Shown: in pieces, positions 10,601 to 29,241 of the stretch | How the letters are laid out: each line of letters begins with the position of its first letter | How positions within the stretch are numbered: position 1 is the first letter of the stretch | Position numbers and translations under genes: made by a program | From: Candidatus Omnitrophota bacterium | GTDB taxonomy: Bacteria > Omnitrophota > Gorgyraeia > Zapsychrales > JANLHA01 | NCBI GenBank assembly: GCA_038222225.1 | Contig: JBBRHV010000007.1 | Location: forward strand, 27-64,026 | Direction of reading: 5' to 3' | DNA length: 64,000 bases | The notes under the pieces: generated by a model | The model's database searches: none | Told to the model about the DNA's origin: nothing | What the model saw: the letters and a program-made list of their open reading frames with translations, nothing else

Positions 10601-11674
10601 TTACACGATCTGTTCTGCGAACTGCAGAACCTGTTGAACGCTTAATTGTTTCAAGCAATGACGATGCTCACAGCTTGCCACTCGAGACCGTCGATAACAC
10701 GGCCGACAAAAAATTGAAGACGTCGCAACGACCTGCCCGTTTACCGGATACGGCCCATAGACGCGCTGGTCTACCGGTCCAAAAATCGATAAGGTCTGCG
10801 CTCCGGCAGCCACGGCCATATGCAACGGCCCGCCGTCATTGGTCACAACGCAACGGCATTGCGCAAAAAGCGCGGCGCTTTGTCCTAAGGTCGTTTGACC
10901 GGTGATATTGAACACCTTTCCCTGAAGCCGCTCTTCGATTCCTTGCGCCAGCTCCTGCTCCGCAACGCTTCCTACCAGTATAATTTGAGCTTTAAATTTT
11001 TCAACGAATTTATGCGCCAATTCCGCAAAATAGGCGGCCGGCCAGCGTTTTAAATCCGCCTCGCCCCCCCAGGACGCCCCTCCTCCGGGAACAAAGGCAA
11101 ACGCCGTTTGGCCCTGGATCCGATGCTCTTGAAAAAAATCTTTGGCCCAGCGGCGTTCATCCTCCGTCAAAGGAAAAACCATCGGCTTAGGCTCCGGTTC
11201 AATGCCTAAGAATTTTAAAAGATCCAGATAATGTTCCACCACATGTTTACCGCTAAAGCCCTTAAGCGGGATCTTCTGTGTCAAAAACCGCCCCCGTCCT
11301 TTAAAATCAAATCCGACCCGCTCAGGAATTCCGGCCAAGGACATGAACAGGCCCGACTGGCTGTTCAGCGACAGATCAATAACGCAATCGTATTTTTTCC
11401 CGCGGATATCTTCGATGAACTGAACGGCCTTCCTCCAAAATCCGATCTTAGAACGCCGATAGGCCTCTTTGAATTCATCCCGCTCATATACAAACACATC
11501 CGAAATATCCTGATGGTGACGCATGATCTCAGCGGTGCGGGCATTGGCAATAAACCCGATCTGACATTGCGGCATAGCCTGTTTGAGATTCGCGATCAAA
11601 GGCGTGGTGAACAGCACATCCCCGATGCCGAATGTGTTGATGATCAAAATATTCTGATATTGCTTGATGGACAT
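10601..11674 (-). CDS. GT9 family heptosyltransferase (ADP-heptose:LPS heptosyltransferase, RfaF/RfaC-like).
   Basis: Motifs NTFGIGDVLFTTP, FVPGGGASWGGEADLKRWP and TNDGGPLHMAVAAGAQTLSIFGP are typical of GT9. Confidence 0.8.
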   Translation of the reverse strand: MSIKQYQNILIINTFGIGDVLFTTPLIANLKQAMPQCQIGFIANARTAEIMRHHQDISDVFVYERDEFKEAYRRSKIGFWRKAVQFIEDIRGKKYDCVIDLSLNSQSGLFMSLAGIPERVGFDFKGRGRFLTQKIPLKGFSGKHVVEHYLDLLKFLGIEPEPKPMVFPLTEDERRWAKDFFQEHRIQGQTAFAFVPGGGASWGGEADLKRWPAAYFAELAHKFVEKFKAQIILVGSVAEQELAQGIEERLQGKVFNITGQTTLGQSAALFAQCRCVVTNDGGPLHMAVAAGAQTLSIFGPVDQRVYGPYPVNGQVVATSSIFCRPCYRRSRVASCEHRHCLKQLSVQQVLQFAEQIV

Positions 11675-11679
11675 TCGAA

Positions 11680-12471
11680 TCAGTTTCCTTCTTTAACCGA
11701 ACGCAGCAGATTATAATAACCGGAAAGCTTCAAAGCAAAATTGAACGGAATATCCAGGTCATTATTTTTAACTTTCACTCTCTTCAATGCAAAAAGATCC
11801 GTGTTCAACCGCTGAGCCCCCCGGTTCGTCGTAAAGGCCCCCCGATACCCGGCCTCCCGCGCAACGGCCTTGGCCTGTTCTGTGAATCCCCCGACCGGAT
11901 AACATAAAAACCGCACGGCCAGACCCAGATGTTCATCGAGGTCTTGTTTTGAACCGAAGATCTCATCCCGCAGCTGCGCCTCACTTAGATCCGGCAGATA
12001 GGCATGGGTCCGGGTATGGCTGCCGAATGAGATCCCTCCGGCGGCCATCTCCTGGGCCTGCGGCCATGACAAAAGATGCTTGTCCTTATAAACGCTATCC
12101 ATCTTTTGGGTCTGAATAAAAATCGTGACCGGAACCGCGTATTTTTTAAAAATCGGAAATCCCTCCGTATAATTGTCCTCGGTCCCGTCATCAAAGGTGA
12201 TCGCGACCGTTTTAGACGGAAACCCTTTTCCGTTCTCAATGCCGTGGGCCAATTCTTCCAACGAGATCACTTGATAATGGCGCTCTTTTAAATACGCCAT
12301 TTGCCGTTCAAAATGACCGGCTGAAACATACAAAGACCCTTGCCCATCGCCGAGGTAATGATACATCAGGACCGGAACCGTATAGCGGGGCCGAAGCCAT
12401 GCCTGATAAAATGCTCCCAGCCCAACGGCGATCAGCGTGATCGCGATCAAAAACGAACGTGATTTTCTCAT
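11680..12471 (-). CDS. Polysaccharide deacetylase (CE4 / NodB-homology) with an N-terminal TM anchor.
   Basis: The NodB motifs VPVLMYHYL and ITFDDGTEDNY are present. Confidence 0.75.
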   Translation of the reverse strand: MRKSRSFLIAITLIAVGLGAFYQAWLRPRYTVPVLMYHYLGDGQGSLYVSAGHFERQMAYLKERHYQVISLEELAHGIENGKGFPSKTVAITFDDGTEDNYTEGFPIFKKYAVPVTIFIQTQKMDSVYKDKHLLSWPQAQEMAAGGISFGSHTRTHAYLPDLSEAQLRDEIFGSKQDLDEHLGLAVRFLCYPVGGFTEQAKAVAREAGYRGAFTTNRGAQRLNTDLFALKRVKVKNNDLDIPFNFALKLSGYYNLLRSVKEGN

Positions 12472-12483
12472 CGAAGCAAACCC

Positions 12484-13650
12484 TTACAGATGTGTTTCCA
12501 GAAATTTCCCGACTGTCTCTGCGACATACTCCAGCTGAGGCAGTTCAATGTCCTGATGAATGCCGATATGCGTGCCGTGATCAGAACAGTATTCCGCTTC
12601 CGGAAAATCACCGAGTTGATGGCCGAGAAACGCATAGCTGGGGCATTGGGTCGGCATCGAATAAAAAAGGTTGCGGGAATCAACGCCCTGACCGTCCAAA
12701 TAACGGACGAACTGTTCTTTGGTGAATTTCAGGCCGGGCTTTAAAATGATCGAAAACGCGTGCGGTCCGATCTTTTCTCCTTCTTCTTCACGAATATAAA
12801 TAAAATATTCCTCGAACTTTTTGAACCGTTCGATCAGATACAATAAGTTGCGGCGGCGTTTTTCAAAGATCTGATGAAAGATATGGATGTTGCCTAAACC
12901 GACCGCGGCCTCGATCTCATTCATCTTGGAGGAAAACCCGATGCGCTTAAAATCAAATTTGTTCACCATCCCATGATTGCGCAACGACCTTAGCGCCTCT
13001 GCCTTCTGCGGGTCGTCGGTGATGACCATTCCTCCTTCAATGCTGGTAATGATGTGCGCCGCATACAGACTGAAGGCCGCCATATCTCCGATGGTTCCGG
13101 CTAAGCGGCCATGGTATTCTGCTCCGTGGGCTTCGGCCGTATCTTCAACGACCAACAGATGCTGCTTTCTTGCGATCGCCATGATCGCGTCCATCGCGGC
13201 AGGTTTCCCCATCAGATGAACCGGCATAATGGCGCGCGTGCGCTCCGTGATCGCGGCCTCAATTTTTTCAGGATCGATATTGAGCGTCTCGCGTTTGACA
13301 TCCACAAAGACCGGCGTCAGTCCGGCCTGAAAAACCGCATTACCGGTCGCGACAAACGATAACGCCGGAACGATCACCTCATCGCCGCGCCGAGCGCCGT
13401 AATCATAAACAACGGCCAGCGCCAGGGCGTCGGCATCGGTGCCACTGGAAACCGCAACCGCCTCCTTGACCTTAAACAGATCCGCAAAAGCCCGCTCGAA
13501 TTCACGCACGATCTTGCCGTTGGTGACAAAGGTTTCATCCAACGCGTTCTTGATCAGCGCTCGCGCTTCGTCGGTGATTGAAACTGTCCCGAAGGGAACC
13601 TTGTAGCCCGCCTTCGTTTCCACACTTTGATTGGCACGCGCGTCTTTCAT
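12484..13650 (-). CDS. DegT-family enzyme with the PLP lysine replaced by histidine (FSLYAAHIITSIEGG). It is predicted to be a ColD/E1-like PMP-dependent NDP-4-keto-6-deoxy-sugar 3-dehydratase rather than an aminotransferase.
   Basis: Aligned against the paralogue at 9482-10585, Lys in FSFYPTK aligns with His in FSLYAAH. The Lys-to-His change is the known signature of ColD and AscC-type 3-dehydratases. The protein has few Cys, so it is not an Fe-S E1 type. Confidence 0.7.
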   Translation of the reverse strand: MKDARANQSVETKAGYKVPFGTVSITDEARALIKNALDETFVTNGKIVREFERAFADLFKVKEAVAVSSGTDADALALAVVYDYGARRGDEVIVPALSFVATGNAVFQAGLTPVFVDVKRETLNIDPEKIEAAITERTRAIMPVHLMGKPAAMDAIMAIARKQHLLVVEDTAEAHGAEYHGRLAGTIGDMAAFSLYAAHIITSIEGGMVITDDPQKAEALRSLRNHGMVNKFDFKRIGFSSKMNEIEAAVGLGNIHIFHQIFEKRRRNLLYLIERFKKFEEYFIYIREEEGEKIGPHAFSIILKPGLKFTKEQFVRYLDGQGVDSRNLFYSMPTQCPSYAFLGHQLGDFPEAEYCSDHGTHIGIHQDIELPQLEYVAETVGKFLETHL

Positions 13651-14369
13651 GGCTGATCATCCTTTCGAAATTCCTGCCGCGCCTGCTGCAGGCGGTCAGG
13701 AGTGCCGATATCTAAAAATCCCGATTCAACCGGATAGGCGAACACCCCACTGTCTAAAATCTTTGGAAAAAACTGCGTTTCAACAGAAAACTTCTCCTCC
13801 GCCGGCATCAGCTCAAAAGCCCGCGGCTCAAAACAATATAGACCGACGCTGACAAATCCTGTGGTTAACGTTTTTTCTTTTTCGCGGAAAGAAACCACCC
13901 GCTGCTTTGCGTCAAATTCAACTGTGCCGTAATCCTGCGCGTCTTCTCTCGAACAGACCGCCAAGGTAACGATGCCCTTTTGGGAATCATGAAAGCGCAG
14001 CATATCAGCGATCGGTATATCAAAAAGGCAATCGCCGTTCATGATGATCCATTTCTTGGCCTGAGCGAATGATTGCGCGAACTTGATCGCGCCGCCCGTG
14101 CCTAACGGATACGGCTCGCGGGAAATCTCAATCTCCAATCCAAAGTCATGCTGACGCGCCACCTGCTCGATCTGTTCGGCGCCGAAGCCGGCGGCCAACA
14201 CCACATGCCTGGCCCCCTGGCGTTTTAAGCGTTCCAGCTGGATCGCCAAAAAAGGGCGGCCGCCGATGTCGACCGCAACTTTCTGCTTTTCTCCGATCGT
14301 CGAACGCAGCCGCGTGCCCAGCCCCCCGCACAAGATCAGCACATCAATATCTAAGACGTCTGTCGGCAT
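13647..14369 (-). CDS. hddC: Sugar-phosphate nucleotidyltransferase, HddC-like (D-glycero-alpha-D-manno-heptose-1-phosphate guanylyltransferase family).
   Basis: The motif LILCGGLGTRLRS (G-x-G-T-R) and a GlmU-N-like fold are present. It directly abuts the GHMP kinase. Confidence 0.65.
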   Translation of the reverse strand: MPTDVLDIDVLILCGGLGTRLRSTIGEKQKVAVDIGGRPFLAIQLERLKRQGARHVVLAAGFGAEQIEQVARQHDFGLEIEISREPYPLGTGGAIKFAQSFAQAKKWIIMNGDCLFDIPIADMLRFHDSQKGIVTLAVCSREDAQDYGTVEFDAKQRVVSFREKEKTLTTGFVSVGLYCFEPRAFELMPAEEKFSVETQFFPKILDSGVFAYPVESGFLDIGTPDRLQQARQEFRKDDQP

Positions 14370-15368
14370 CTAAACCACTTTCCCGGTATTGGGTTGATAA
14401 AAAATGATCTGCGACCCCGCATCCTCAAACTTGATCGGCACCTGCAAATATTTCTTGAGCGCCTGGCGCACCTGCGGCTGACGCTCCGGCGGAACGAAGA
14501 GAAGCACAAACCCTCCTCCGCCTGCGCCCAGCAGTTTCCCGCCTAAGGCCCCATTTTTCATCGCGGCTTCATACATGGCATCAATTTCAGGAGTGGCGAT
14601 CTTATCAGACAGCGACTTTTTCAGTTTCCAGCTTTCATCCAAAAGACGCCCAAAATCATTCAGCTCTCCATGATTAAGAATTTCCAGCGATTGAACAGCC
14701 ATCTCATACATCGTTTGCAATTCGGCTGTTCGGGCAGGAATATTACGAATTTGATGCTCGGCAATTTTAGAAGCCAGGCGCGAAAATCCGGTAAAAAATA
14801 TCATCAGATGATCCTGCAGGTTCTGGATCTTTTCTTTTCCAACAGTGACCTGCCTGACCTTCAAATGATTGTCGCCGCCGAATTCAATAAAATTAAAACC
14901 TCCGTGAGCGACCAGCGTCTGATCCTGACAACCGACAATATCCTTGCAAAGGTCCTGCTCAATATGAATGGCCTCGCGCGCCAACTGATCTTTGGTCGGC
15001 ATCGTGCCCAGAAGGGCATATAAAGAGTTGAGCAGTCCCACCGTGAAAGAAGAGCTGGAGCCCAATCCTGTGCGCGCCGGAAGGTCCCCGTCATGATGGA
15101 TCTCGATCCCCTCCTGAATCTTCAAGAACCGCAAAACCTCGCGCACGGCCGGATGGTCAATGTCGTCAATCGCCTGGACAAGTTCGATCTGTGAATACAT
15201 GATCCGTGATTTATGTTCAAAAAACGGCGGCAGGTAGCGGCAGGTGATATAACAATATTTATCGATGGTGGTGGCCAGAACCGCCCCTTTGTGATCTTGG
15301 AACCAATCCGGATAATCCGTTCCTCCACCGAAAAATGACACCCGAAATGGCGTGCGGCTAATAATCAT
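14370..15368 (-). CDS. hddA: GHMP kinase, HddA-like (D-glycero-alpha-D-manno-heptose 7-phosphate kinase).
   Basis: The N-terminus MIISRTPFRVSFFGGGTDYP is characteristic of heptose-7-P kinases. The GHMP ATP motif GLGSSSS is present. Confidence 0.65.
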   Translation of the reverse strand: MIISRTPFRVSFFGGGTDYPDWFQDHKGAVLATTIDKYCYITCRYLPPFFEHKSRIMYSQIELVQAIDDIDHPAVREVLRFLKIQEGIEIHHDGDLPARTGLGSSSSFTVGLLNSLYALLGTMPTKDQLAREAIHIEQDLCKDIVGCQDQTLVAHGGFNFIEFGGDNHLKVRQVTVGKEKIQNLQDHLMIFFTGFSRLASKIAEHQIRNIPARTAELQTMYEMAVQSLEILNHGELNDFGRLLDESWKLKKSLSDKIATPEIDAMYEAAMKNGALGGKLLGAGGGGFVLLFVPPERQPQVRQALKKYLQVPIKFEDAGSQIIFYQPNTGKVV

Positions 15369-16869
15369 ATCCTGCCTCCTCTAAAATCCTTCGTTTGAGT
15401 TTGATCTGAGTCGAACGCAATGTTTCATCCACGGCCAGCTGCCCGAATTTTTCTTTGAGCATCCCCAAAAATTTCGGATTCGTATGATAGATCATCCAGG
15501 CTTTGTCCCGAAACGCCAGAACCTCCTCGGCGCTCAGATGTTTGGTCGGCAACGGCTGCGCGTCATACGAATGCTGTGAAAATCCGGCATAGCTCCGGGG
15601 GAGTTTCCACCCTTCACGGATGGCCAAGCCATACAGCGGGCTTCCCGGATAAGCCATCGCGCAATAAAAATTCGCCATTTCTGTGTTTAACCTCATGGCC
15701 AGGTCCAGCGTCTCCTGCATACTCTGCCGATCATCTTCCGGCAGCCCAAAAATATAATTGGCGGCGACCGATATTCCGCTATTCCGGATCATCCGGACAA
15801 CGTCCTCGATGTCCACCTCTTCAAAGCGCCCCTTGGCGACACTGCGGCGGACGCGTGTATTTCCGCTTTCAATGCCCAGGGACAAAAAATTGATCCCGGC
15901 CCGTTTCATGATGTCCAAATATTCACCGCGGATCATATCCACCCGGGCGTAACACCAGATGTTGAAATCATATCCGCGCTCAATGATCAGTTCGCACAAT
16001 TTTAAAAAATGCTCTTTTTTAAAAACAAAAAGTTCATCGGCAATTTTGATATTCCTGATTCCCATTTTGGCGAAACGCTCGAAATCCCGGATAATGAATT
16101 CCGGGTCCCAGTGACGGAAAACCGCGCTTCCGTCCGAATAGATGTTTTCCTGACGGTTGATGATGTTGATCATACAGAACGAGCACTTCATGGGACACCC
16201 TAAACTCGTATAGATCGAAACAAACGGCTCACGCACACAGTCATTGGGGAGCGCGTGCCACAACGCCGTGCGGTAACGCTCCATCGGCAAAAGGTCCCAA
16301 GCCACGCCGGGCAGCTCACGCTCCAAATCCTGCTGCGCAACGATGGCAGACGGCGAATTAAGGATCATGCGCTCGCCGTCCCTCCAGCCTAAACCGCGGA
16401 CCTCCCCAAGGCTTAAAGAGAGGTCGGTTGCCAAAAGAGCGGAGATCGTATACACGCCCTCGTTTTGGCAGACAAAATCAATGCACCCGTGCTTCTCCAA
16501 GGTTTCATACGGTAAAGCCGCCACATGCGCGCCCACAAAAAGAATTTTTTGATCCAAAGCAGCGGAGCGCAATTTCTCCGCCAGGCGCAACGCGCCTTCC
16601 ATATTCTGCGTGGAAGCGCTGGGATGCTGCCCGTAAATCACAAAGGCCGCCAATCGAGGACGCGCTTCCATGATCCGCTGAATCGCTTCTTCGTCGCTTA
16701 GCTGCAGTGCTTCAGTATCCAGAATGTTTGTGACGAAGCCGTGCAAACGGACATGACCGGCAAGCATCCCGGCCCAAAGCGGCGGTTCGATCGCTGAATA
16801 GGCCTTATTTAAATCCTGATAAATAATTTCAGCGGCATTCGCATGTATGAAAAGAATATCTAACGGCAT
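15358..16869 (-). CDS. B12-binding radical SAM enzyme (class B rSAM; candidate C-methyltransferase or sugar-modifying rSAM).
   Basis: An N-terminal B12-binding domain is followed by the radical SAM core with CPMKCSFC (CX3CX2C). It is the first gene after intergenic repeat island 1. Confidence 0.75.
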   Translation of the reverse strand: MPLDILFIHANAAEIIYQDLNKAYSAIEPPLWAGMLAGHVRLHGFVTNILDTEALQLSDEEAIQRIMEARPRLAAFVIYGQHPSASTQNMEGALRLAEKLRSAALDQKILFVGAHVAALPYETLEKHGCIDFVCQNEGVYTISALLATDLSLSLGEVRGLGWRDGERMILNSPSAIVAQQDLERELPGVAWDLLPMERYRTALWHALPNDCVREPFVSIYTSLGCPMKCSFCMINIINRQENIYSDGSAVFRHWDPEFIIRDFERFAKMGIRNIKIADELFVFKKEHFLKLCELIIERGYDFNIWCYARVDMIRGEYLDIMKRAGINFLSLGIESGNTRVRRSVAKGRFEEVDIEDVVRMIRNSGISVAANYIFGLPEDDRQSMQETLDLAMRLNTEMANFYCAMAYPGSPLYGLAIREGWKLPRSYAGFSQHSYDAQPLPTKHLSAEEVLAFRDKAWMIYHTNPKFLGMLKEKFGQLAVDETLRSTQIKLKRRILEEAGYDY

Positions 16870-16924
16870 GATCCATTAACCTTCATAATGACACTAAGGC
16901 ACTAAAAAAATCAAAAAGAAATAA

Positions 16925-16966
16925 AATGTGTTTCAATGTGTTTCAATGTATTTCAATGTATTTCAG
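16925..16966. repeat. Tandem 10-bp repeats TTTCAATGTR, about 4 copies. On the minus strand this is the same unit (ACATTGAAAY) as in the 27891-27970 array.
   Basis: Read directly: gtgtttcaatgtgtttcaatgtatttcaatgtatttcag. Confidence 0.8.
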
Positions 16967-16995
16967 TTATATTTCGTTCATCTTTAGTTGTCTAT

Positions 16996-17030
16996 TGTTC
17001 TTTGTTTCTTGTTTCTTGTTTCTTGTTTCT
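16996..17030. repeat. Tandem heptamer TTGTTTC x5.
   Basis: Read directly: ttgttctttgtttcttgtttcttgtttcttgtttc. The island is flanked by the inverted repeats CACTAAGGCA (16892-16901) and TGCCTTAGTG (17044-17053). Confidence 0.7.
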
Positions 17031-17063: not shown

Positions 17064-17996
17064 TTATATATTCGCATACTGACTGCGCTTAATAATCTTA
17101 TACGCCTTGATCAATTCCGCAATGCCGGCCTGCAGCGAATGGTCCGGCTTAAATCCAGCAGCCTCGATCTTCGCGTTGGAAACAATATAATCCCGTTTGT
17201 CCGGATCTTCGTTGATGTCTGACTCAACAAAATAAAAATCCGGGATCACTTTTTTGATCTCTTCGCAAAGCTGCCACTTGCTTAAATTGGCGTCACTCAA
17301 ACCGACGTTATACGCTTCATTTTTCATCGCGTCAAAATGGTTCAGCCCATAAGAAAAAGCCTTGGCGACGTCGCGCACATGAATAAAATTCCGGCGGAAT
17401 TTCGCTTCAAAAATAACCAGGTAACGGTCATAGACAGCCCGGTAGGTAAAATCATTCACTAAAAGGTCCAGTCGCATGCGCGGGCTGACCCCAAACGCCG
17501 TTGCCAACCGCAATGTGATGGCGTTTCCGTCTTGAAGAATAGATTCTTCCGCCTCAACTTTCAGCTGACCATATAATGAGACCGGCCTCAATGGCGTCTG
17601 CTCCGTGCAAAGTTTGTCTCTCTCTCCTATGCCATAACCGCTATTGGTCGTTGGATAAATAATGATCTGGTTTTTACTGCGCAGTTTTAAGATCATCTGT
17701 ACTGCGCCAACGATCACGCCGCGCGCAGCATCCGGATCGGTCGCGCACAAAGGCGCCCCTGTTAGGCACGCCAGAGGAAAGACCGCGTCGGCCGTCTTCA
17801 TCAGGCGCTGCATCAACGAAGAATCCCTGGCATCTCCCCGCACAATATCCAAGTTGGGATTCACGCAGCAATCCAGCAACGAGCTCTGCTTATACATAAA
17901 ATTATCCACAACCGTAACGGTGTGGCCTTCCTCAAGAAAACGGGGAACCAGAACCGAACCAATATAACCGGCCCCGCCGGTGATCAAGATTTTCAT
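17064..17996 (-). CDS. NAD-dependent epimerase/dehydratase (extended SDR) with an intact GGAGYIGS, catalytic Ser and YGQLK.
   Basis: The Rossmann motif MKILITGGAGYIGS is present. TNSGYG and YGQLK form the S/YxxxK triad. Confidence 0.8.
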   Translation of the reverse strand: MKILITGGAGYIGSVLVPRFLEEGHTVTVVDNFMYKQSSLLDCCVNPNLDIVRGDARDSSLMQRLMKTADAVFPLACLTGAPLCATDPDAARGVIVGAVQMILKLRSKNQIIIYPTTNSGYGIGERDKLCTEQTPLRPVSLYGQLKVEAEESILQDGNAITLRLATAFGVSPRMRLDLLVNDFTYRAVYDRYLVIFEAKFRRNFIHVRDVAKAFSYGLNHFDAMKNEAYNVGLSDANLSKWQLCEEIKKVIPDFYFVESDINEDPDKRDYIVSNAKIEAAGFKPDHSLQAGIAELIKAYKIIKRSQYANI

Positions 17997-18928
17997 ATCA
18001 AAAGTCCTTTTTTAAGTGCTGCCTCCCAAAGACGGACCAGGCCTTCGCGCAGCACAGTCTTGGCCATCCATCCCCTCGTCTGTATCGGGCTGACCTCCAG
18101 CAATCTCTGGAAATCTTCATCCTGGATTTTTTCGTCATATTCGATCGTTCCTTCGAATCCGGAAATATCCCGGATCATTTCCGCTAAATCCCGGGTCGCA
18201 ATATCCACCCCGGATCCAATGTTGATCGGCTCCGCCTCCTCGTAGTGACGCATTAAAAACTCACAGGCACTGGCGAAATCCTCTGAGAACAAAAATTCCC
18301 TGCGGATATCAGGATTTTTTAAAACACGGACCTTCTCCCGTCGGTCAGCCGCCGCCTGAATAAAAAGCTCAACCAGATCAGACAAAAAACCACTTTGATC
18401 ATCACCCTCTTCTTTGCGCGGACCATAAATAGACGGCGCAATGGCAACCACCGCATTAAAGCGATACTGCAGACGGTAAGCCTCACACATCGCGATTCCG
18501 GCGATCTGACTGATCGCGCTGGATTGACTCTGTGGATCCAACGGTCCGGTGACAACATAATCTTCTCTCATCGGCTGAGGGCATTGGCGGGGATACACAT
18601 CAGAGTCCGCCAGATAAAGCAGCTTTTTTGAGCCTAAACGATAGGCCGCATCTATGATCTGCGTCTGGCTCATCATGTTCATAAGAAAATATTCTGCCGG
18701 ACGATGCGGCGGCTTAGCCGTGTCTTGAGAAGCCAACGAATCCAAGATCACGTACTCCGGCTGATAATCCTTAAAAAAATCATCCACGGCCTGGCGGTTT
18801 AACGTGTCCAGATCAACCGCCCCTGCCGTTAACAGGCGCCGATAACCTTCGGCTTCGAAATATTCAATGATCGCCTGTTCTTTAGCCTCCTGATGTCCGG
18901 CAATGAAAATAGTGGCTTCATGATCCAT
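17993..18928 (-). CDS. GDP-L-fucose synthase (Fcl/GMER) homologue with a degenerate active site. It lacks the GxxGxxG, the Ser/Tyr/Lys triad and the Cys. It is a probable pseudoenzyme or non-catalytic partner.
   Basis: It aligns with E. coli Fcl along its whole length (IFIAGH, AVDDFF, FLMNMMSQTQIIDAA, QPMRED, QIAGIAMCEAYRLQY, NIGSGVDIATRDLAEMI, RLLEVSPIQTRGW). However GHRGMVGSA is replaced by GHQEAKEQA, LGSSC by LADSD, and PYAIAK by SSAISQ. It has a 4-nt overlap with the downstream SDR gene. Confidence 0.7.
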   Translation of the reverse strand: MDHEATIFIAGHQEAKEQAIIEYFEAEGYRRLLTAGAVDLDTLNRQAVDDFFKDYQPEYVILDSLASQDTAKPPHRPAEYFLMNMMSQTQIIDAAYRLGSKKLLYLADSDVYPRQCPQPMREDYVVTGPLDPQSQSSAISQIAGIAMCEAYRLQYRFNAVVAIAPSIYGPRKEEGDDQSGFLSDLVELFIQAAADRREKVRVLKNPDIRREFLFSEDFASACEFLMRHYEEAEPINIGSGVDIATRDLAEMIRDISGFEGTIEYDEKIQDEDFQRLLEVSPIQTRGWMAKTVLREGLVRLWEAALKKGLLI

Positions 18929-18932
18929 ATTC

Positions 18933-19988
18933 TTAACTCACCTTTTTTGTTCTAATCACCTCTAAGACCGCTTCTTTAATATCTTTCGCGCCCAGATAAA
19001 ACGCCTGTTCCAGCGTATAGCCCGCCGGTGTTGGAAGATCCGGCAGCGCGACCCGTTTGGGCGCGCATGTCAGATCATGAAAAGCGCGTTCGGTCACCTG
19101 GGCAATGACCTCAGCCGCGAACCCGCCGGTTGTCCAGGCCAGATCCGCCACAATCAGCCGTCCGGTTTTTTTAACCGAAGCCAAGATCGTTTCGATATCC
19201 AATGGTCGGATCGTTCTGGGATCGATCACCTCGACTTCAATTCCGTCAGCAGCCAGTTCATCCGCCGCCCGCAACGATTCGATCACCATATGCGAAACCG
19301 CCACAATCGTCACATCACTCCCTTCGCGCTTCACCGCGGCTTCTCCAAACGGGATCGCGTACATATGTTCAGGAACGCAGCTTTGATGTTTATACAGCCA
19401 TCGGTGTTCAAAAAATAAAACTGGATTGTTATCAGCAACACCGGAAATAAACAGTCCTTTGGCATCATAAGCCGTCGCTGGAAGAGCGATCTTTAGACCG
19501 GGAACATGGTGAAACAAGCCGTGCAGGGCTTGGGAATGCTGCGCGGCAGACCCCCATCCTCTGCATACACAGGCACGGATCATGACAGGCAACGGCACTT
19601 GCCCGGCAAACATATAACTCCATTTTGCGGCGTGATTCACGATCTGATCCATGGCCATCAAAAGAAAGTCTGGGCGGTTGTGAATCACAATCGGCCGCAT
19701 GCCGGCCATGGCCGCCCCCAAAGCAATACCGATGGCAGCCTCTTCGTTTAACGGCGTATCAAAAACCCGCTCTAACCCGTATTTCTTGAACAACCCCGTT
19801 GTGGTACCGAACATCCCCTGAGGATCATTGATTCCCTGCCCCATCGCAAACACCCGCGGATCATACTCCAGCGACTGATCGAGCGCCTCAAACAACGCCT
19901 TTTCAAAATCCAGCTTACGCGCGTTATCCCCGGCGTTCTCATCGAATTCAGGCTCTTCACTCTCAACTTGTAGTTTTGTCCAAGGCAT
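18933..19988 (-). CDS. TPP-dependent dehydrogenase E1 component beta subunit (transketolase-like C-terminal/pyrimidine-binding).
   Basis: The motifs DPRVFAMGQGINDPQGMFGTTTGLFKKYG...RVFDTPLNEEAAIGIALGAAMAGMRPI are typical of E1beta. Confidence 0.8.
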   Translation of the reverse strand: MPWTKLQVESEEPEFDENAGDNARKLDFEKALFEALDQSLEYDPRVFAMGQGINDPQGMFGTTTGLFKKYGLERVFDTPLNEEAAIGIALGAAMAGMRPIVIHNRPDFLLMAMDQIVNHAAKWSYMFAGQVPLPVMIRACVCRGWGSAAQHSQALHGLFHHVPGLKIALPATAYDAKGLFISGVADNNPVLFFEHRWLYKHQSCVPEHMYAIPFGEAAVKREGSDVTIVAVSHMVIESLRAADELAADGIEVEVIDPRTIRPLDIETILASVKKTGRLIVADLAWTTGGFAAEVIAQVTERAFHDLTCAPKRVALPDLPTPAGYTLEQAFYLGAKDIKEAVLEVIRTKKVS

Positions 19989-20008: not shown

Positions 20009-21013
20009 CTATTCAACAAACAGATATTTCGTAAGATCGCGCGCATCAGGCAAAGGGCTGTTTTGCGCGAACACGAACGCCTCTCCGACATCCCGATCAA
20101 CTCGCGTTCTGATCTCTTGAACGCGGCTTGAATCAAGAAGCCCTTCCTTTAGAACGTGTGCAATAAACTCTTCGATCGGATCCCTCCGATACCCTTTTGT
20201 AAATTCCTCCGGCATTCGATACAATTGCGCACTCGCGTCCCCCGGTCCGACATGCATCCTCCATCGCTGAACAACATATTCCAAAACAAACGGACCCTTG
20301 CCTGAACGCGCGTGGCTGACGGCCTGAGCGGCTGAGGCATACACATCCAGCGGATTCATCCCGTCAACACGGCATGACGGGATATCAAAAGCCCGTGCGC
20401 GCTTGTATAAATATTCGTTGGCCTCCCGGACCGAAAGGTGGGAATTGACCGAATAGAAATTGTTTTCGATCACAAAAACGACCGGCACTTTTTTAAGCGC
20501 AGCCCAGCCCATGCTTTCATAAAAAACACCCTGCTGGCATGCCCCGTCGCCGAGAAAAACAACGGCGATCGAATCTTTCTTCTGCATCTGAAATGCCAAT
20601 GCGGCTCCCACCGCATGCGGTGTGGCTCCCGCGACAATGGCTGAAGAGCCCCAATGACCGACCTCTTTAGCGACCAAGTGCATCGAGCCGCCGCGCCCGC
20701 TCGAACAGCCGGTTTCGCGACAGTAGAGCTCTGCGATCATCGCGCCTAAGTTCCCGCCCTTCGCCAAATAATGAGCGTGGCTGCGATGATTGCTGAAGAC
20801 CGCATCCTCTGTTCTTAAATGCATACACACGCCGGCTGAAACCGCTTCCTCACCCAAACTCAAATGGACCGGGGTCTTCATCTCATCCAAGTGATAAAGT
20901 TCTTCAATCTTGAGCTCCGTGACCCGGATCAGCAGCATCTTTCGCAAAAATTCAGCGGTCTGCTCGCCAGTCAGGTTCGGTACGGAAAACTGTGCGCAAT
21001 CGTTTTTGGCCAT
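20009..21013 (-). CDS. TPP-dependent dehydrogenase E1 component alpha subunit.
   Basis: The TPP motif GDGA...x27...ENN is present (VFLGDGACQQG...VIENNFYS). The start is taken at the internal Met (MAKNDC) 2 nt after the upstream stop. No E2 or E3 lies nearby. Confidence 0.8.
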   Translation of the reverse strand: MAKNDCAQFSVPNLTGEQTAEFLRKMLLIRVTELKIEELYHLDEMKTPVHLSLGEEAVSAGVCMHLRTEDAVFSNHRSHAHYLAKGGNLGAMIAELYCRETGCSSGRGGSMHLVAKEVGHWGSSAIVAGATPHAVGAALAFQMQKKDSIAVVFLGDGACQQGVFYESMGWAALKKVPVVFVIENNFYSVNSHLSVREANEYLYKRARAFDIPSCRVDGMNPLDVYASAAQAVSHARSGKGPFVLEYVVQRWRMHVGPGDASAQLYRMPEEFTKGYRRDPIEEFIAHVLKEGLLDSSRVQEIRTRVDRDVGEAFVFAQNSPLPDARDLTKYLFVE

Positions 21014-21015
21014 CT

Positions 21016-21966
21016 CTAAAAACACCCTTTCTCCTGAAACCATGTAATGGTCTCACGCAATCCTTCTTGCAACGGCACCATCGGCTCCCACTTCAGCAGG
21101 CGTTTGGCAAGCGAAATGTCCGGACGCCGTCGTTTCGGATCATCCGTCGGAAGCGGTTCGAACTTCATTTCACTTTTTGAGCCCGAAAGCTTTAACACAA
21201 GCTTGGCAAACTGGATCATGGTAAATTCCATCGGATTGCCGATATTGACCGGACCGACATAATCTGAACGCAACAATCTATAAATTCCCTCGATCAGGTC
21301 ATAGTAATAACAGAATGACCGCGTTTGCCGCCCTGATCCGTAAACGGTCAAGGGCTTCCCATGCAGCGCCTGATAAATAAAATTAGGAACAACACGACCG
21401 TCGTCAATGCGCATCCGCGGCCCGTAGGTATTAAAGATCCGCACAATACGGACATCGACCTTATGATAACGGTGATAGGCCAGCGTGATCGCTTCGGCAA
21501 ACCGCTTGGCTTCATCATAAACCCCGCGCGGGCCCGTCGGATTAACATGGCCCCAATAGGTTTCCTTCTGCGGATGTTCCAAAGGATCCCCATACACCTC
21601 CGAGGTCGAGGCTAAAAGAAAACGCGCCTTTTTGCCTTTTGCCAGTCCCAAAGCATTGTGCGTTCCCAACGACCCCACCTTAAGCGTCTGGATCGGATAC
21701 ATCAGATAATCGACCGGGCTTGCGGGAGAGGCGAAATGCAGCACATGATCCACCGGCGCTGAGATTTTGATCGGCTTGGAAATGTCATGCTTGATAAATT
21801 CAAAATATTTCTGTTTCTTCAGATGAGCAATATTTTTCAGGCTTCCGGTGATCAAATTATCAATACAGAACACCCGGTGCCCTTCTGACAAAAGAAGGTC
21901 GCATAAATGGCTCCCCAAAAATCCCGCTCCTCCTGTGATCACGGCATGTCTTTTACGTCCCATCAC
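21016..21966 (-). CDS. UDP-glucuronate decarboxylase (UDP-xylose synthase-like) SDR.
   Basis: Motifs [18 protein letters not shown] and [23 protein letters not shown] are highly characteristic of UXS/ArnA-decarboxylase enzymes. Confidence 0.8.
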
Positions 21967-21974
21967 TCTTCTCC

Positions 21975-23279
21975 TTATAAACGAACCACTTTTACGTTAC
22001 GGCTGGATTTGTACACATTGCGGGTATCAAAGATCAGCTGCGCGTGCTTGAGCACCGCCGGATAATTCACGCGGGAATGATCCGTCGCGATCACAACGCA
22101 ATCGTACTGCCGTAACGTTTTCGGTGAAAGTTTGACCGACTCCTTTTGATGAATATTGAAGATCTCCAAATACGGGATCAGCGGATCAAAGTAATCCACT
22201 CTCGCCGCCTGCTCCTGAAAGAGCCCGATCAGATTCAACGGCGGAGACTTGCGCAAATCCCGCACATCTTTTTTATAGGTAACCCCCATGACCAGGATCC
22301 TGGACTCCTTCAATGTCTTTCCTCTGTCCTGAAGAACTTGCGCAATGCGCCCGACGACATAAGCCGGCATCTGCGCGTTGGTATCGGCCGAGAGCTTAAT
22401 GTATTTTGAATCAAATCCATAGCGCCGCGCCTTCCAATATAAATAGAGCGGGTCATCCGGAATACAATGACCTCCGACGCCAAGCCCGGGATAAAAAGGC
22501 ATAAAGCCGAACGGTTTTGTTTTGGCGGCTTCAATGACTTCCCAAATATCGATCCCCATCTTTTCGCACATCATGGCCACTTCATTGATCCACCCGATAT
22601 TGATGATCCGAAACGAATTCTCCAGCAATTTGGTCATCTCCGCCGCGTCCGCGGAAGAAACCACATGAATGACTTTGATGATCTTGGAATACAGCTCTTT
22701 GGTTAAGGCGGTGCTCTTGGCATCCAGGCCGCCAACGACTTTCGGAATACGCGTGACATCATACGTCTTGTTGCCCGGATCAATGCGCTCCGGCGAAAAC
22801 GCCAGAAAGAAATCTTTCCCTGCTTTCAGCCCGGACTTTTCCAATTCCGGCCGAATCATTTCCCGTGTGGTGCCCGGATAGGTCGTACTCTCCAGCACAA
22901 CCAGAACGTCCCGCTTTAAATATTTCCGAAGCGTCCTGACCGCGCCCATGATGAACGAAACATCCGGCGTATATTTGCTTTTTAAAGGAGTCGGCACGCA
23001 GATGATCACGACATCCGTTTCCGCCAAATGTTCAAAATCCGTGGATGCCGAAAGATGGCCGCTGCGCACAACACTCGCCAGTTCCTTCTGCGGAATATCG
23101 GCGATATAACTTTTATGCGCTGAAACTCTGTTGACACGATCCTCATCCGTATCCAGCCCATAGACCTTAAATCCCACTTTCGCGAAATTGACGGCCAACG
23201 GCAATCCGACATACCCTAAGCCCAGGACAGAAATAACCGCCTTTTTCGTTCTAAGCTTTCTTAAAAGCTGCGTGCTCAT
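21975..23279 (-). CDS. NDP-sugar dehydrogenase (UDP-N-acetyl-hexosamine/mannosamine dehydrogenase, WecC/TviB-like).
   Basis: The UDPG_MGDP_dh family N-terminus [16 protein letters not shown] is present. The start is taken at the Met of MSTQLL, ahead of the Rossmann motif. Confidence 0.8.
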
Positions 23280-23298
23280 CCCTCCGCCCTCCCTTTCT

Positions 23299-24639
23299 CT
23301 AAACAGACCCCTTCGCGCCGTTCTGGCCGCGGCCGATCCCATAATATTCGAACCCCAACCGTTCCAGATTTTGATGGCTATAAAAATTCCGCCCATCAAA
23401 AAGAATCGGCTGTTTCATTAATTTCACGATCCGCGCGAAATCCAAGCGGCTGAATTCCTCCCATTCGGTTAACAGCACCAGACAATCGCACCCTTTAACC
23501 ATCGTGTAGACATCTTTAGAATAAACCACCTTTTTCAAAACCTTTTTCGCGTTCTCCATAGCCTGCGGATCATACACCCGGACCTGGGCCCCTTCGGCCA
23601 AAAACATCTGAATAATGTCCGTCGACGGAGCTTGACGCATATCATCCGTGTCCGGCTTAAAAGCCAGCCCCAGCACCCCGATCGTCTTGCCTTTCAGAAT
23701 CCACAGTTTATCCTCGATCAAATGCACAAAAGCTTTTTTCTGCGCCTCATTGATATTACGGACTTCTTTCAATAATTCAAATTCATAACCGCTGCGCTGA
23801 CTTAAACGGATAAAAGCATCCACGTCCTTTGGGAAACAGCTCCCGCCATAACCGACCCCGGCGTTGAGAAAGGCCCGGCCGATCCGCTTGTCATGCCCCA
23901 TGCCTTCGGCGACTTTGAGCACATCCGCCCCGACCCGGTCGCAGATTTGCGCGAGGGCGTTGGCAAATGAGATCTTTGTGGCCAAAAATGAATTGGAGGC
24001 GTGTTTGATGATCTCCGCCGAATTGATATTGGTCACCACCATTTTCGGTTTCAACGGCTTATAAATTTCCCGCAATAATTCCTCGGCGCGCTTGGACTCT
24101 ACGCCGACCACCACCCGATCCGGCTTCATAAAATCTTCAATGGCCGAACCCTCCCTCAAAAATTCGGGATTCGAAGCCACATCAAAGACAATGGCCTGCT
24201 TTGCGCCTTTACGGTGTTTCTGCGGAAGATTGAGCATGATCGTGCGCTTGACTCTCTGGCCGGTCTCCGCCGGAACCGTGGACTTTTCAACGATCAGCTT
24301 ATAGCAATCCATGTTTTCGGCGATCTGTCGGGCCACATTCTCAACATAGGTCAGATCCGCATCGCCGTTCTTCTTGGAAGGTGTTCCGACCGCGATAAAG
24401 ATCACGTCCGATTTTTGTGTGGCCTGACGGATAGAGGTGGTAAACGTCAGCCGCTTCTTCTTGCACAAATGCGCCATCATGTCTGCAAGGCCGGGCTCAT
24501 AAATCGGACATACGCCCTGATTCAGGCCTTTGATCTTTTTCTCATCGTTGTCAATACAGATCACCTGGTGGCCGATCTCCGCCAAACACACGCCGGTAAC
24601 CAACCCTACATATCCTGCGCCGATCACTGCTATATTCAT
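23299..24639 (-). CDS. ugd: UDP-glucose 6-dehydrogenase.
   Basis: The N-terminus MNIAVIGAGYVGLVTGVCLAEIGHQV and IYEPGL are present, as is the catalytic Cys region GGSCFPKD. Confidence 0.8.
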   Translation of the reverse strand: MNIAVIGAGYVGLVTGVCLAEIGHQVICIDNDEKKIKGLNQGVCPIYEPGLADMMAHLCKKKRLTFTTSIRQATQKSDVIFIAVGTPSKKNGDADLTYVENVARQIAENMDCYKLIVEKSTVPAETGQRVKRTIMLNLPQKHRKGAKQAIVFDVASNPEFLREGSAIEDFMKPDRVVVGVESKRAEELLREIYKPLKPKMVVTNINSAEIIKHASNSFLATKISFANALAQICDRVGADVLKVAEGMGHDKRIGRAFLNAGVGYGGSCFPKDVDAFIRLSQRSGYEFELLKEVRNINEAQKKAFVHLIEDKLWILKGKTIGVLGLAFKPDTDDMRQAPSTDIIQMFLAEGAQVRVYDPQAMENAKKVLKKVVYSKDVYTMVKGCDCLVLLTEWEEFSRLDFARIVKLMKQPILFDGRNFYSHQNLERLGFEYYGIGRGQNGAKGSV

Positions 24640-24671
24640 ACACCCCATCCTTTCGGTCGAAAATCGATGCT

Positions 24672-27717: not shown

Positions 27718-27890
27718 AGTTTTAATATTTATATTGATATTAAAGAAGCGGAATTATTCTAATGGAAAAATGGTTTTGTTGCAAGACGGAATTCAACTAA
27801 TCACGTGCAGCGAGTAGCGTACAATGCGACCAAAGGAAGCCCTGAATTTGGCGAAGGATGGAGTAAAAAATCCTGAAAAATATCGAAAAA

Positions 27891-27970
27891 CACATTGAAA
27901 TACATTAAAACATGATTGAAATATATTGAAATATATTGAAATACATTGAAACACATTGAAATATATTGAG
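27891..27970. repeat. Eight perfectly phased 10-bp tandem repeats, consensus AYAYATTGAA (one helical turn per unit). An inverted copy TTTCAATGTGTTTCC lies at 28130-28144, and TTGTTTC-like and CTTCTTCC repeats lie at 28116-28186.
   Basis: Read directly: cacattgaaa tacattaaaa catgattgaa atatattgaa atatattgaa atacattgaa acacattgaa atatattgag. Confidence 0.85.
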
Positions 27971-29223: not shown

Positions 29224-29241
29224 AACGCTCCCTTTTCCCCT

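Follow-up and report, generated by a model that had tools for sequence, protein, structure and literature searches.

The SDR fold has been put to non-catalytic or regulatory use in MAT2B, in NmrA/HSCARG, in the complex I subunit NDUFA9 and in HSD17B8, a subunit of the KAR heterotetramer. In Campylobacter jejuni, Cj1427 makes a GDP-4-keto-heptose and Cj1428 is an Fcl-type reductase (PMC10680097). In Arabidopsis, the GMD enzyme MUR1 is stabilized in a complex with GER1, a protein of the Fcl type, and in yeast MUR1 depends on GER1 for activity (Nakayama, 2003, via PMC11501016); MUR1 expressed alone is inactive (PMC11501016). DesVIII/TylM3-type proteins, which are P450-like and non-catalytic, are listed under the heading of ‘glycosyltransferase auxiliary protein’ (PMC4425429).

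We compared with these systems an Fcl-like gene of a Candidatus Omnitrophota bacterium that lies in a stretch of 64,000 nucleotides (the window; all features given below are on its minus strand). The open reading frame at 17993-18928 was confirmed. Its product, which we call pFcl, has 311 amino acids, a pI of 4.7 and a net charge of about -19, and homology, alignment and predicted structure characterize it as a dead Fcl/Cj1428-type extended SDR. The NCBIfam profile GDPFucSynFcl (NF047922) aligns with residues 5-306 over its positions 3-303 of 308, at a score of 224 bits that lies below the curated equivalog cutoff of 500 bits. Solved Fcl structures match pFcl with E values of 1e-39 to 1e-43; with E. 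coli GMER (1bws and 1e6u) the aligned regions are 6-302 and 5-310, at an E value of about 1e-39 and 30% identity. A preliminary description of this DNA had proposed homology to Fcl over the full length, and this is borne out by the profile, the structure-sequence matches and the alignment. It had also suggested a structure prediction; pFcl modeled alone with AF2 gave a confident fold (pLDDT 90, pTM 0.90), the low-confidence spots of which are the former cofactor and active-site loops. The end-to-end homology to the Fcl/GMER family extends to the fold (Foldseek TM 0.82-0.90), the top matches being MlghC, Cj1428, DdahC, the HS:15 reductase and E. coli GMER (TM 0.85-0.90). Proteins of this kind are automatically annotated as ‘GDP-L-fucose synthase’.

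The adjacent frame (17064-17996) encodes a protein of 310 amino acids that aligns without gaps to Cj1427 at 58% identity (E 2e-120 to 6VO6; PDB titles identify 6VO6 and 6VO8 as Cj1427). A single-sequence AF2 model of this protein reached pLDDT 40, and its Foldseek output was used for PDB titles only. The SDR motifs TGGAGYIGS and Y142-x-x-x-K146 are present, in agreement with the earlier view that the neighbor is catalytically intact. By homology we assign it as an NAD-dependent NDP-heptose C4-dehydrogenase of the Cj1427 (GDP-heptose C4-dehydrogenase) type, an identity that the preliminary description had not given. With such a close Cj1427 homologue next to it, pFcl is an Fcl-type fold encoded beside a Cj1427-type C4-dehydrogenase, and the gene pair therefore resembles cj1428(fcl)-cj1427 of Campylobacter.

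We then examined the functional positions of Fcl, which we take to be those of the UniProt P32055 annotation and the GMER literature (residue changes are numbered as in E. coli Fcl). The NADPH-binding Gly-rich loop, canonically GHRGxVG, reads GHQEAKE at residues 11-17 of pFcl (18878-18898), with both G13 and G16 of the G10-x-x-G13-x-x-G16 pattern replaced by Glu, and it is variable among orthologues (GxxE/G/DxxE/A/Q). The preliminary description had aligned GHRGMVGSA with GHQEAKEQA; the loop is indeed altered, but the statement that it holds no Gly was slightly overstated, since the first Gly is kept. A second cofactor-binding segment after strand 3 (18722-18745) has changed in the alignment from LAAAKVGG to LDSLASQD and, like the Gly loop, varies among orthologues where NADP(H) enzymes have AAxKVGG. 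The wider loop 63-76 of the pFcl clade has 3% cross-identity to canonical enzymes and a pLDDT of 69-76.

The alignment further places LADSD opposite LGSSC (18599-18613; G106A, S107D and C109D, with S108 kept), QSSAISQ opposite EPYAIAK (18506-18526; Y136S and K140Q) and QSGFL opposite NSHVI (18383-18397), where the epimerization residue His179 is replaced by Gly in a loop of pLDDT 54. Two earlier readings, that the Ser107/Tyr136/Lys140 triad has become Asp/Ser/Gln (LGSSC to LADSD, PYAIAK to SSAISQ) and that the epimerization residue Cys109 has become Asp, are thus seen in the alignment; together with Gly at position 179 they leave neither partner of the Cys109-His179 acid/base pair. The changes H179G, R187L, W202L, AAAKVGG to DSLASQD and PTNL to APSI were absent from the preliminary description. 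Among the substrate residues, presumably Arg187, Trp202, Arg209 and Asp278 as in P32055, the first two are Leu in pFcl and the last two are retained as R210 and D270. The NADPH site and catalytic Tyr/Lys of the Cj1428/MlghC/DdahC-type C4-reductases are likewise absent. Among the best 120 database matches this combination of substitutions is confined to 6 close orthologues, and hence does not reflect chance. On the strength of these substitutions, pFcl is very probably not an NADPH-dependent epimerase or reductase.

The entire operon is syntenic in several Omnitrophota assemblies, and the gene order is the same whether the Fcl-like gene is dead (L001, L004, L018) or has an intact triad (L015, L016). 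A sister clade keeps the catalytic residues and has an altered Gly loop, the clade of the window (the dead clade) has lost both, and Verrucomicrobial loci have a canonical-type enzyme at the Fcl-like position. In the sister-clade orthologue P0038, for instance, the loop reads GKGDVIE and the triad is intact. The tree of the Fcl-like proteins is congruent with that of the Cj1427-like proteins. The Fcl-like gene is inherited vertically with the operon, and the pFcl gene is the positional orthologue of catalytically intact Fcl-like genes. We infer that pFcl descends from the catalytic epimerase/reductase of the module, that the Gly loop changed first, in Omnitrophota, and that the triad, Cys109, His179, Arg187 and Trp202 were lost after this change in the clade of the window. 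Scans of genomes and metagenomes added only the identical loci L004 and L019 to the dead clade, which is rare in public data. The sequence around two other degenerate Fcl-like proteins (P0145 and P0151) is short and uninformative. Every source is a metagenome assembly, as would be expected if pFcl were an artefact of assembly or a pseudogene that arose recently in a single MAG. This explanation is effectively refuted and has a negligible probability, because the gene is intact and carries these substitutions in assemblies and samples that are independent of each other (the window, L003 from an SRA run, L001/L002, L004/L019, L014, L018 and P0002/P0004).

We compared the mean pairwise identity of 36 functional positions with the background in each group. 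The values were 0.90 versus 0.58 in canonical Fcl and 0.64 versus 0.47 in the sister clade, whereas the dead clade showed 0.48 versus 0.59. In pFcl, conservation at the former active-site positions is thus lower than in the remainder of the protein, which argues against a relocated active site. None of the replacement residues is invariant in the dead clade (D/G at 107, D/G/S at 109, S/N/C at 136, Q/N at 140, G/H at 179), the positions of Arg187 and Trp202 vary among its members, and its alignment, read at the level of sequence, contains no new Tyr, Lys, Cys, His or Asp that is invariant at or near the old pocket. Alternative residues that rebuild a Ser-Tyr-Lys triad and a Gly loop, which according to the preliminary description would speak against a pseudoenzyme, were looked for by alignment and not found. 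Both a relocated triad and a new Asp-based active site were rejected because the candidate residues are not invariant.

The epimerization of 4-keto sugars by GMER-type enzymes is established as acid/base chemistry that needs no hydride transfer, and Asp108 and Asp110 occur in 6/7 and 5/7 dead-clade sequences, respectively. These points would suit a protein that has gained a new cofactor-independent activity on a 4-keto sugar, as an epimerase, isomerase or dehydratase, through new residues such as the Asp replacing Ser107 and Cys109. However, both Asp positions vary (107 is Gly in L004; 109 is Gly in P0003 and Ser in P0121), the invariant positions specific to the dead clade include no alternative Tyr, Lys, Cys or His, and the low conservation of the old pocket is contrary to such a role, making a new activity of this kind very improbable.

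The best-conserved elements of pFcl are strand 4, the loop 109-131, residues 212-244 and 257-279, and the alpha-D dimer helix. The dead clade has 75 invariant positions, 46 of them common to the canonical enzymes. A clade-specific motif, IQDEDFQRLL, takes the place of KPDGTPRKLL in the alignment (18098-18127); within it, F273-Q274-R275 is invariant in 7/7 dead-clade sequences and D270-E271-D272 in the 5/5 sequences of alignment A2.

Full-length dead-clade orthologues are all open frames of 309-321 amino acids, down to an identity of 39%, and the neighboring genes are 51-80% identical. In comparisons of the window with its orthologues dS exceeds 1 and is saturated, which makes dN/dS unreliable there, so omega was taken from the closer, unsaturated pair L004/L014. 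It was 0.23 for the whole Fcl-like gene, 0.14 (NG86) or 0.21 (ML) for its first 285 codons, and 0.06-0.10 for the neighboring genes. L014 carries a 1-nt deletion that alters the last ~22 residues of the Fcl-like protein. In every comparison pFcl was the fastest-evolving gene of the locus, with a dN of 0.23-0.31 versus 0.06-0.07 for the Cj1427-like gene. Selection on pFcl is purifying but relaxed. Because the catalytic and cofactor motifs are missing consistently across all orthologues while the frame is intact and under purifying selection, ‘pseudoenzyme’, the term proposed in the preliminary description, is a better fit than ‘decaying pseudogene’, and we hold with good confidence that pFcl is maintained as a functional protein.

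The same gene could be a vestigial remnant, a protein with little or no function whose catalytic step became dispensable and whose frame persists mainly through operon architecture. The start of the Cj1427-like gene overlaps the end of pFcl and is reached only by ribosomes that read through pFcl, and the last pFcl codons (KKGLLI) carry the Shine-Dalgarno-like site of that downstream gene, read in the sequence as AAGGA at 18005-18009, 8 nt before the ATG; the KKGLL that is conserved at the C-terminus in the alignment coincides with this ribosome-binding site. The rapid evolution of pFcl, the free drift of its old functional sites and the 3′-end frameshift in L014 point in the same direction. 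On the other hand, an omega of 0.14-0.23 is far below 1, the invariant positions are spread across the whole fold and include buried Gly, Pro and aromatic residues of the core and the new FQR motif, the length is kept even in the most distant orthologues, and the AF2 model is confident. A spacer frame alone would not keep the amino-acid sequence conserved. We consider it unlikely that pFcl is a remnant of this sort.

The preliminary description had also noted that the stop of pFcl overlaps the start of the adjacent SDR gene in an ATGA arrangement (17993-17996), and had taken this to suggest a co-translated heterodimer. The overlap is readily read in the sequence, the TGA of pFcl at 17995-17993 sharing nucleotides with the ATG at 17996-17994, and is identical in L001, L002 and L004; in a deeper member of the dead clade the two genes are 4 nt apart, and in the intact sister clade 25-28 nt or more. 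Since other junctions of the operon are equally tight (overlaps of 4 nt between the NTP-transferase and DegT1 genes and of 11 nt between the rSAM and GHMP kinase genes), the overlap is weak evidence for a heterodimer, and we downgraded it as specific evidence.

On the other side of pFcl, homology identifies the two subunits of a TPP enzyme, one PDH-E1-beta-like (18933-19988, with its stop 4 nt before the pFcl ATG) and one PDH-E1-alpha-like (20009-21043). The operon also encodes a B12-binding radical SAM enzyme (15358-16869) and a DegT-family sugar aminotransferase (12484-13650), both assigned to the same conserved module by homology and conserved gene order, as well as, by homology under the family cutoffs, an HddA-like GHMP sugar kinase (14370-15368) and a sugar-1-phosphate nucleotidyltransferase nearest to HddC and mannose-1-P guanylyltransferase (13647-14369). 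Omnitrophota and Verrucomicrobia alike have the Fcl-like gene next to the two-subunit TPP enzyme, whereas Omnitrophota alone have it next to the Cj1427-like gene. Only the below-cutoff family matches indicate what the module acts on; by these, the kinase and nucleotidyltransferase would produce a heptose-like sugar linked to an NDP, probably GDP. This sugar would be oxidized at C4 by the Cj1427-like enzyme, and the 4-keto product would go to the E1-like TPP enzyme for addition of a two-carbon branch, to the DegT aminotransferase(s) and to the B12-radical-SAM enzyme. The E1-like pairs AviB1/B2 and Pau11/12 attach a branch of two carbons to C4 of 4-keto sugars (PMC4425429). The product of the module is probably a higher sugar, branched or aminated, at the cell surface of these uncultured bacteria; the literature on Omnitrophota LPS yielded nothing informative.

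Taking these results together, we slightly favor the view that pFcl is a folded, maintained pseudoenzyme of a surface-glycan operon that most likely serves as a non-catalytic helper of neighboring sugar enzymes. Selection would have maintained its fold together with the SDR dimer helix and some of the C-terminal domain, and pFcl would bind and stabilize or organize a neighboring enzyme acting on the labile 4-keto intermediate. One candidate partner is the Cj1427-like dehydrogenase, by analogy with MUR1, the GMD enzyme stabilized by plant GER1; the E1-like TPP enzyme is just as good a candidate, and pFcl may serve both. A heterodimer of pFcl and the adjacent SDR is plausible, and action through protein-protein association with a neighboring enzyme is a possibility that we rate a little below even. 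The stricter version, in which pFcl is an obligate non-catalytic subunit retained solely to stabilize or activate the Cj1427-type dehydrogenase or to dock the NDP-4-keto sugar onto the E1-like TPP enzyme, appears doubtful. The fast evolution of pFcl counts against a helper role, since the obligate partner subunit of an enzyme that evolves slowly should itself change slowly. We found nothing relevant in the literature on dead Fcl or pseudo-SDR proteins in nucleotide-sugar pathways, and to our knowledge no scaffold pseudo-SDR has been described before in a bacterial glycan pathway; pFcl, if it has this stricter role, would be the first.

The pattern of conservation in the C-terminal domain also bears on the idea that pFcl binds a ligand rather than a protein, its C-terminal domain holding the nucleotide sugar or GDP moiety so that it carries or protects the labile 4-keto intermediate or presents it to the E1-like TPP enzyme. 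That enzyme has no nucleotide-sugar-binding domain of its own and is the neighbor of the Fcl-like gene in both phyla; the C-terminal elements and loop 109-131 are among the best-conserved parts of pFcl, residues 229-244 reaching 0.71 in the dead clade versus 0.42 in canonical enzymes; and two substrate residues persist as R210 and D270. Yet the substrate residues Arg187 and Trp202 are lost and variable, Asp278 is Gly in P0121, the deepest dead-clade member, and the strongly negative net charge is unfavorable for a diphosphate ligand. We therefore regard ligand binding as quite unlikely.

The ‘GDP-L-fucose synthase’ annotation would lead to a false prediction that Omnitrophota reduce fucose or heptose intermediates in this pathway. 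The orthologous operons hold the gene in three states (canonical-type, Gly loop altered with the triad intact, and fully dead) and constitute a natural experiment, a series that shows the change from enzyme to pseudoenzyme while the neighbors stay fixed. The locus also flags a sugar-modification module shared across phyla, consisting of the Cj1427-like dehydrogenase, the two-subunit TPP enzyme, the DegT aminotransferase and the B12-rSAM enzyme. Should pFcl indeed act as a helper, a second, structural function toward the 4-keto-forming enzyme, as in GER1-MUR1, may be general among Fcl-type proteins and could outlive catalysis.

With E. coli Fcl (WcaG/GMER; 1BWS, 1E6U; EC 1.1.1.271), pFcl shares the two-domain extended-SDR fold (TM about 0.87-0.89) and several conserved elements, namely the dimer helices, the NxGxG and RREF motifs and the YP...QPM loop; unlike that enzyme it lacks G13, G16, S107, C109, Y136, K140, H179, R187 and W202. 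Its best structural matches are the C. jejuni Fcl-type GDP-heptose C4-reductases (Cj1428, 7M13; MlghC, 7ANC; DdahC, 7ANH; HS:15 reductase, 8EWU), which are encoded beside and act after the C4-dehydrogenase Cj1427, just as the neighbor of pFcl is a 58%-identical Cj1427 homologue. These reductases are NADPH-dependent with intact cofactor sites, whereas pFcl is without one, and its pathway differs from that of C. jejuni by the E1-like TPP enzyme, the B12-rSAM enzyme and the aminotransferases. In MAT2B, NmrA/HSCARG, NDUFA9 and HSD17B8 the SDR fold is reused as a regulatory, scaffold or partner subunit, as we propose for pFcl, but most such proteins still bind NAD(P)(H), while pFcl appears to have no dinucleotide site, descends from a nucleotide-sugar enzyme and sits in a bacterial glycan operon. 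DesVIII and TylM3 are, as proposed for pFcl, dead enzyme homologues from a sugar pathway that help a neighboring enzyme; they have another fold and another class of partner, and their helper role is experimentally established where that of pFcl is proposed. GER1 is an Fcl-family protein that binds and stabilizes the upstream, 4-keto-forming SDR, a non-catalytic function that pFcl could retain. GER1 is at the same time a fully active enzyme with GMD as its partner, whereas pFcl, which its residues mark as catalytically dead, has the Cj1427-type dehydrogenase as its candidate partner.

The ORF at 17993-18928 on the minus strand encodes a 311-residue protein, pFcl, which had been described as an end-to-end homologue of GDP-L-fucose synthase (Fcl or GMER). 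This is borne out by the NCBIfam equivalog profile of that enzyme, in which positions 3-303 of 308 match residues 5-306 of pFcl (224 bits versus a 500-bit cutoff), and by the alignment with E. coli GMER (6-302/5-310, E about 1e-39); the closest solved structures in a sequence search are Fcl enzymes. The N-terminal Rossmann start goes unrecognised by Pfam, whose Epimerase match begins only at residue 36. Residues were compared with E. coli Fcl, in a numbering that agrees with the S107A, Y136E and K140R mutants named in PDB entries. In these alignments (E. coli numbering for positions 107-202) the glycine loop G10-H-R-G13-M-V-G16 reads G-H-Q-E-A-K-E, LGSSC reads LADSD and PYAIAK reads SSAISQ, all as in the preliminary description, although its statement that the Rossmann motif has no glycine went too far: G13 and G16 are both replaced by glutamate, but the first loop glycine is kept. 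Ser108 is also retained. Beyond the losses in the preliminary description, His179 is changed to Gly, Arg187 and Trp202 are both changed to Leu, and the segments AAAKVGG and PTNL have become DSLASQD and APSI.

Among the 120 best matches in a database of 5.8 billion proteins, only six close orthologues (57-100% identity) have the full loss pattern, and matches at 42% identity or less keep the Ser/Cys/Tyr/Lys/His set with at most one change each. The pattern is not a chance feature. An assembly artefact was considered and refuted by the presence of the same gene in independent assemblies and samples. Its fold and ancestry place pFcl in the Fcl/GMER-Cj1428 branch of extended SDRs, but it falls short in every functional hallmark of that family, and we file it as an Fcl-family-derived pseudoenzyme.

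The downstream SDR (17064-17996, minus strand), claimed earlier to be catalytically intact, indeed has a TGGAGYIGS loop and Y142-x-x-x-K146. It shares 58% identity, gap-free over 308 residues, with PDB 6VO6 and 6VO8, whose titles name Cj1427 of Campylobacter jejuni. In C. jejuni, C4 is later reduced by the Fcl-type enzyme Cj1428 (PMC10680097). The structures closest to the AF2 model of pFcl are the heptose C4-reductases MlghC, Cj1428, DdahC and the HS:15 enzyme, along with E. coli GMER (TM 0.85-0.90). Given the similarity of the neighbour to Cj1427 and these structural matches, we regard the two genes as a cj1428/cj1427-like pair with a dead Fcl-type member.

The pair is part of a minus-strand operon, with LptD in its surroundings, that encodes two NDP-sugar 6-dehydrogenases, a UXS/ArnA-like SDR, PDH-E1-alpha-like and E1-beta-like TPP subunits followed by pFcl, the Cj1427-like protein and a B12-radical-SAM enzyme, and also an HddA-like GHMP kinase, an HddC-like or mannose-1-P-guanylyltransferase-like nucleotidyltransferase, a DegT aminotransferase, a polysaccharide deacetylase, a GT9 heptosyltransferase, a second DegT and a GT2. 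As the kinase and nucleotidyltransferase matches fall below family cutoffs, GDP-heptose is a presumed substrate. The E1-like pairs AviB1/B2 and Pau11/12 put a two-carbon branch on C4 of 4-keto sugars (PMC4425429). At 8708-12471 and 21016-24648 the operon includes genes reminiscent of the Ara4N (Arn) pathway, for a UDP-glucose 6-dehydrogenase, the UXS/ArnA-like SDR, a deacetylase of the ArnD family, a small GT2 and an ArnB-like DegT that scores 241 bits, below cutoff, against the UDP-Ara4N aminotransferase model; a second NDP-sugar dehydrogenase is also present. Alternatively, the E1-like enzyme could use the UXS-like product as its acceptor, by analogy with eurekanate biosynthesis. The 194-nt gap between the Cj1427-like and B12-radical-SAM genes contains short tandem repeats at 16904-17030 (on the plus strand, AATGTATTTC x4 and TTGTTTC x4, the latter being GAAACAA x4 on the coding strand).

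The window is chromosomal and includes genes for DnaK, ClpB, HflX and SHMT. The glycan operon is followed directly on its 3' side by a transposase ORF of the IS200/Y1 type (7788-8525) and an SpvB-domain ORF (6682-7569). Upstream of the sugar genes, a block of GAF-GGDEF, GGDEF, ROK kinase and LptD genes (26785-30537) is also syntenic in Omnitrophota loci (5' parts of L015 and L018), which places the operon in a conserved chromosomal neighbourhood beside the LPS-transport gene lptD.

Among GTDB species representatives a single orthologue was found, in locus L004 of a Candidatus Omnitrophota MAG. The database loci L001, L004 and L018 are syntenic with the window gene for gene, and the L018 protein (P0121) is a more divergent dead member with 39% identity to pFcl. 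Full-length orthologues of this dead clade all have open frames that encode 309-321 aa. The L014 gene (P0005, L014:787-1716) carries a 1-nt deletion near codon 289 that alters the last ~22 residues; ...TVLREGLVRLWETSYKKGLLI and the ATGA overlap can still be read in the original frame, and the frameshift must be an error of assembly or else have arisen very recently.

A second protein group occupies the same operon slot in L015 (P0038, L015:10001-10930), L016 (P0022, L016:4202-5128), L011 (P0007, L011:883-1788) and L013 (P0013, L013:3787-4692). This sister clade, assigned by position (these four, P0009 and P0011) or by sequence (P0122, P0140 and P0150), shares 38-41% identity with pFcl and keeps Cys109, Tyr136, Lys140 and His179, with Ser107 changed to Ala in three members. 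Its loop is a conserved, altered G-x-x-D-[IV]-[VI]-E instead of GxxGxxG, and T164A and N165T also occur. The members of this clade could be epimerases that need no NADPH, or unusual binders of the cofactor. Two Verrucomicrobia MAGs (L008, at L008:7267-16237, and L010) contain a related module whose genes follow the order Cj1427-like, nucleotidyltransferase, GHMP kinase, canonical-type Fcl-like, split transketolase (separate N and C subunits), DegT, B12-radical-SAM and GT2, which suggests a conserved but uncharacterised pathway to a higher sugar that is branched or aminated.

The Fcl-like and the Cj1427-like proteins give congruent trees by neighbour joining: in both, (window, L001), (L004, L014) and L018 form one clade, triad-intact Omnitrophota its sister and Verrucomicrobia the outgroup. 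This is most simply explained by vertical descent in which the protein degenerated step by step, the glycine loop first and then, in one clade, all other functional residues. Downstream, dead-clade loci have a second DegT, deacetylase, GT9 and GT2, whereas a GDSL esterase, carbamoyltransferase and GT4 take their place in the one long locus of the sister clade, a weak correlation of dead Fcl with gene content. A change in the glycan product may have made C4 reduction or epimerisation dispensable. In the raw alignments of a profile search against 1.84 billion cluster representatives, several other Fcl-like proteins from metagenomes (P0145, P0151, P0223, P0233, P0245, P0247 and P0268) appear to lack more than one catalytic residue, and dead Fcl-like proteins may have arisen repeatedly.

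pFcl is the most diverged gene of the locus in every comparison. In L001, L004, L014, L018 and L015 its counterparts share 65%, 63%, 57%, 39% and 38% identity with the window protein, against 90%, 86%, 87%, 75% and 71% for the Cj1427-like protein and 83%, 84%, 82%, 74% and 70% for the E1-beta-like subunit; dN is 0.23-0.31 versus 0.06-0.07 for the Cj1427-like gene, with dS saturated in these pairs. For the closer pair L004/L014 (dS about 0.3-0.4), omega of pFcl is 0.23 over the whole gene and 0.14 (NG86) or 0.21 (ML) without the frameshifted L014 tail. Since neighbouring genes give 0.06-0.10, pFcl is under clear purifying selection, relaxed 2-4-fold. Seventy-five positions are invariant in seven dead-clade sequences, 46 of them common to canonical enzymes, and the AF2 model is confident (pLDDT 90, pTM 0.90), dipping at residues 11-20, 61-80 and 171-180, the former cofactor and active-site loops. 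A vestigial ORF retained for translational coupling would account for the fast evolution and the L014 frameshift, but with omega far below 1 and a conserved core we consider it unlikely.

We compared 36 positions, assigned to cofactor, catalysis or substrate after the UniProt P32055 annotation and GMER literature, with the background by mean pairwise identity. Functional positions scored 0.90 versus 0.58 in canonical enzymes, 0.64 versus 0.47 in the triad-intact sister clade and 0.48 versus 0.59 in the dead clade. In the dead clade the replacement residues vary (D/G at position 107, D/G/S at 109, S/N/C at 136, Q/N at 140 and G/H at 179), and the loop ranges from GxxExxE to GxxGxxA. Conservation is lowest in the glycine loop and in loops 63-76 and 165-180. 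It is highest in strand 4, loop 109-131, residues 212-244 and 257-279 and the alpha-D dimer helix, and FQR within DEDFQRLL is invariant and clade-specific. Functional positions below background, together with the variability of its loops, indicate that the old pocket is unconstrained; the fold, the helix for dimerisation and portions of the C-terminal domain, FQR among them, are maintained. This combination favours a structural role over a cryptic cofactor-independent enzyme, which is highly improbable: in the dead-clade alignment no invariant residue replaces those lost, which speaks against a relocated active site. A role as a non-catalytic GDP-sugar binder or carrier would agree with a C-terminal domain that is conserved and still has R210 and D270, but R187 and W202 are lost and the net charge is -19, making it rather improbable.

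pFcl is thus real and maintained, an orthologue of Fcl-type enzymes deficient, as judged from its residues, in both catalysis and cofactor binding; its mechanistic role is a proposal. Its gene sits between those of the E1-like TPP enzyme and the Cj1427-type C4-dehydrogenase, and we infer that pFcl would serve one of these adjacent enzymes as a non-catalytic partner, both of the enzymes being ones which would handle a labile NDP-4-keto sugar. The TPP enzyme is a candidate because the Fcl-like gene adjoins a two-subunit TPP enzyme in both phyla (the Cj1427-like gene in Omnitrophota only) and because E1-type enzymes are not known to carry a domain that binds nucleotide sugars. For the dehydrogenase, a parallel comes from the Fcl-type GER1, which, in the account of Nakayama 2003 given by PMC11501016, binds and stabilises the 4-keto-forming GMD enzyme MUR1 and is needed for its activity; a second function of this kind could outlast the loss of catalysis. 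The overlap of the pFcl TGA with the ATG of ORF 17064-17996, earlier read as a sign of a co-translated heterodimer, is present as ATGA. It is little evidence, because other junctions are equally tight (NTP-transferase/DegT1, 4-nt overlap) and gaps replace it in L018 (4 nt) and the sister clade (25-28 nt or more). The codons for the C-terminal KKGLL, which is conserved in the dead clade, overlie the AAGGA to which ribosomes would bind for the Cj1427-like gene, in the purine-rich AAAAAAGGA ribosome-binding region at 17996-18016; this conservation probably reflects a nucleotide signal, not protein function.

Literature searches turned up no account of a dead protein of the Fcl type. Dead helper proteins of sugar pathways are already known in the DesVIII type, and SDR folds serve in non-catalytic roles in MAT2B, NmrA/HSCARG and NDUFA9, most of which still bind NAD(P)(H).
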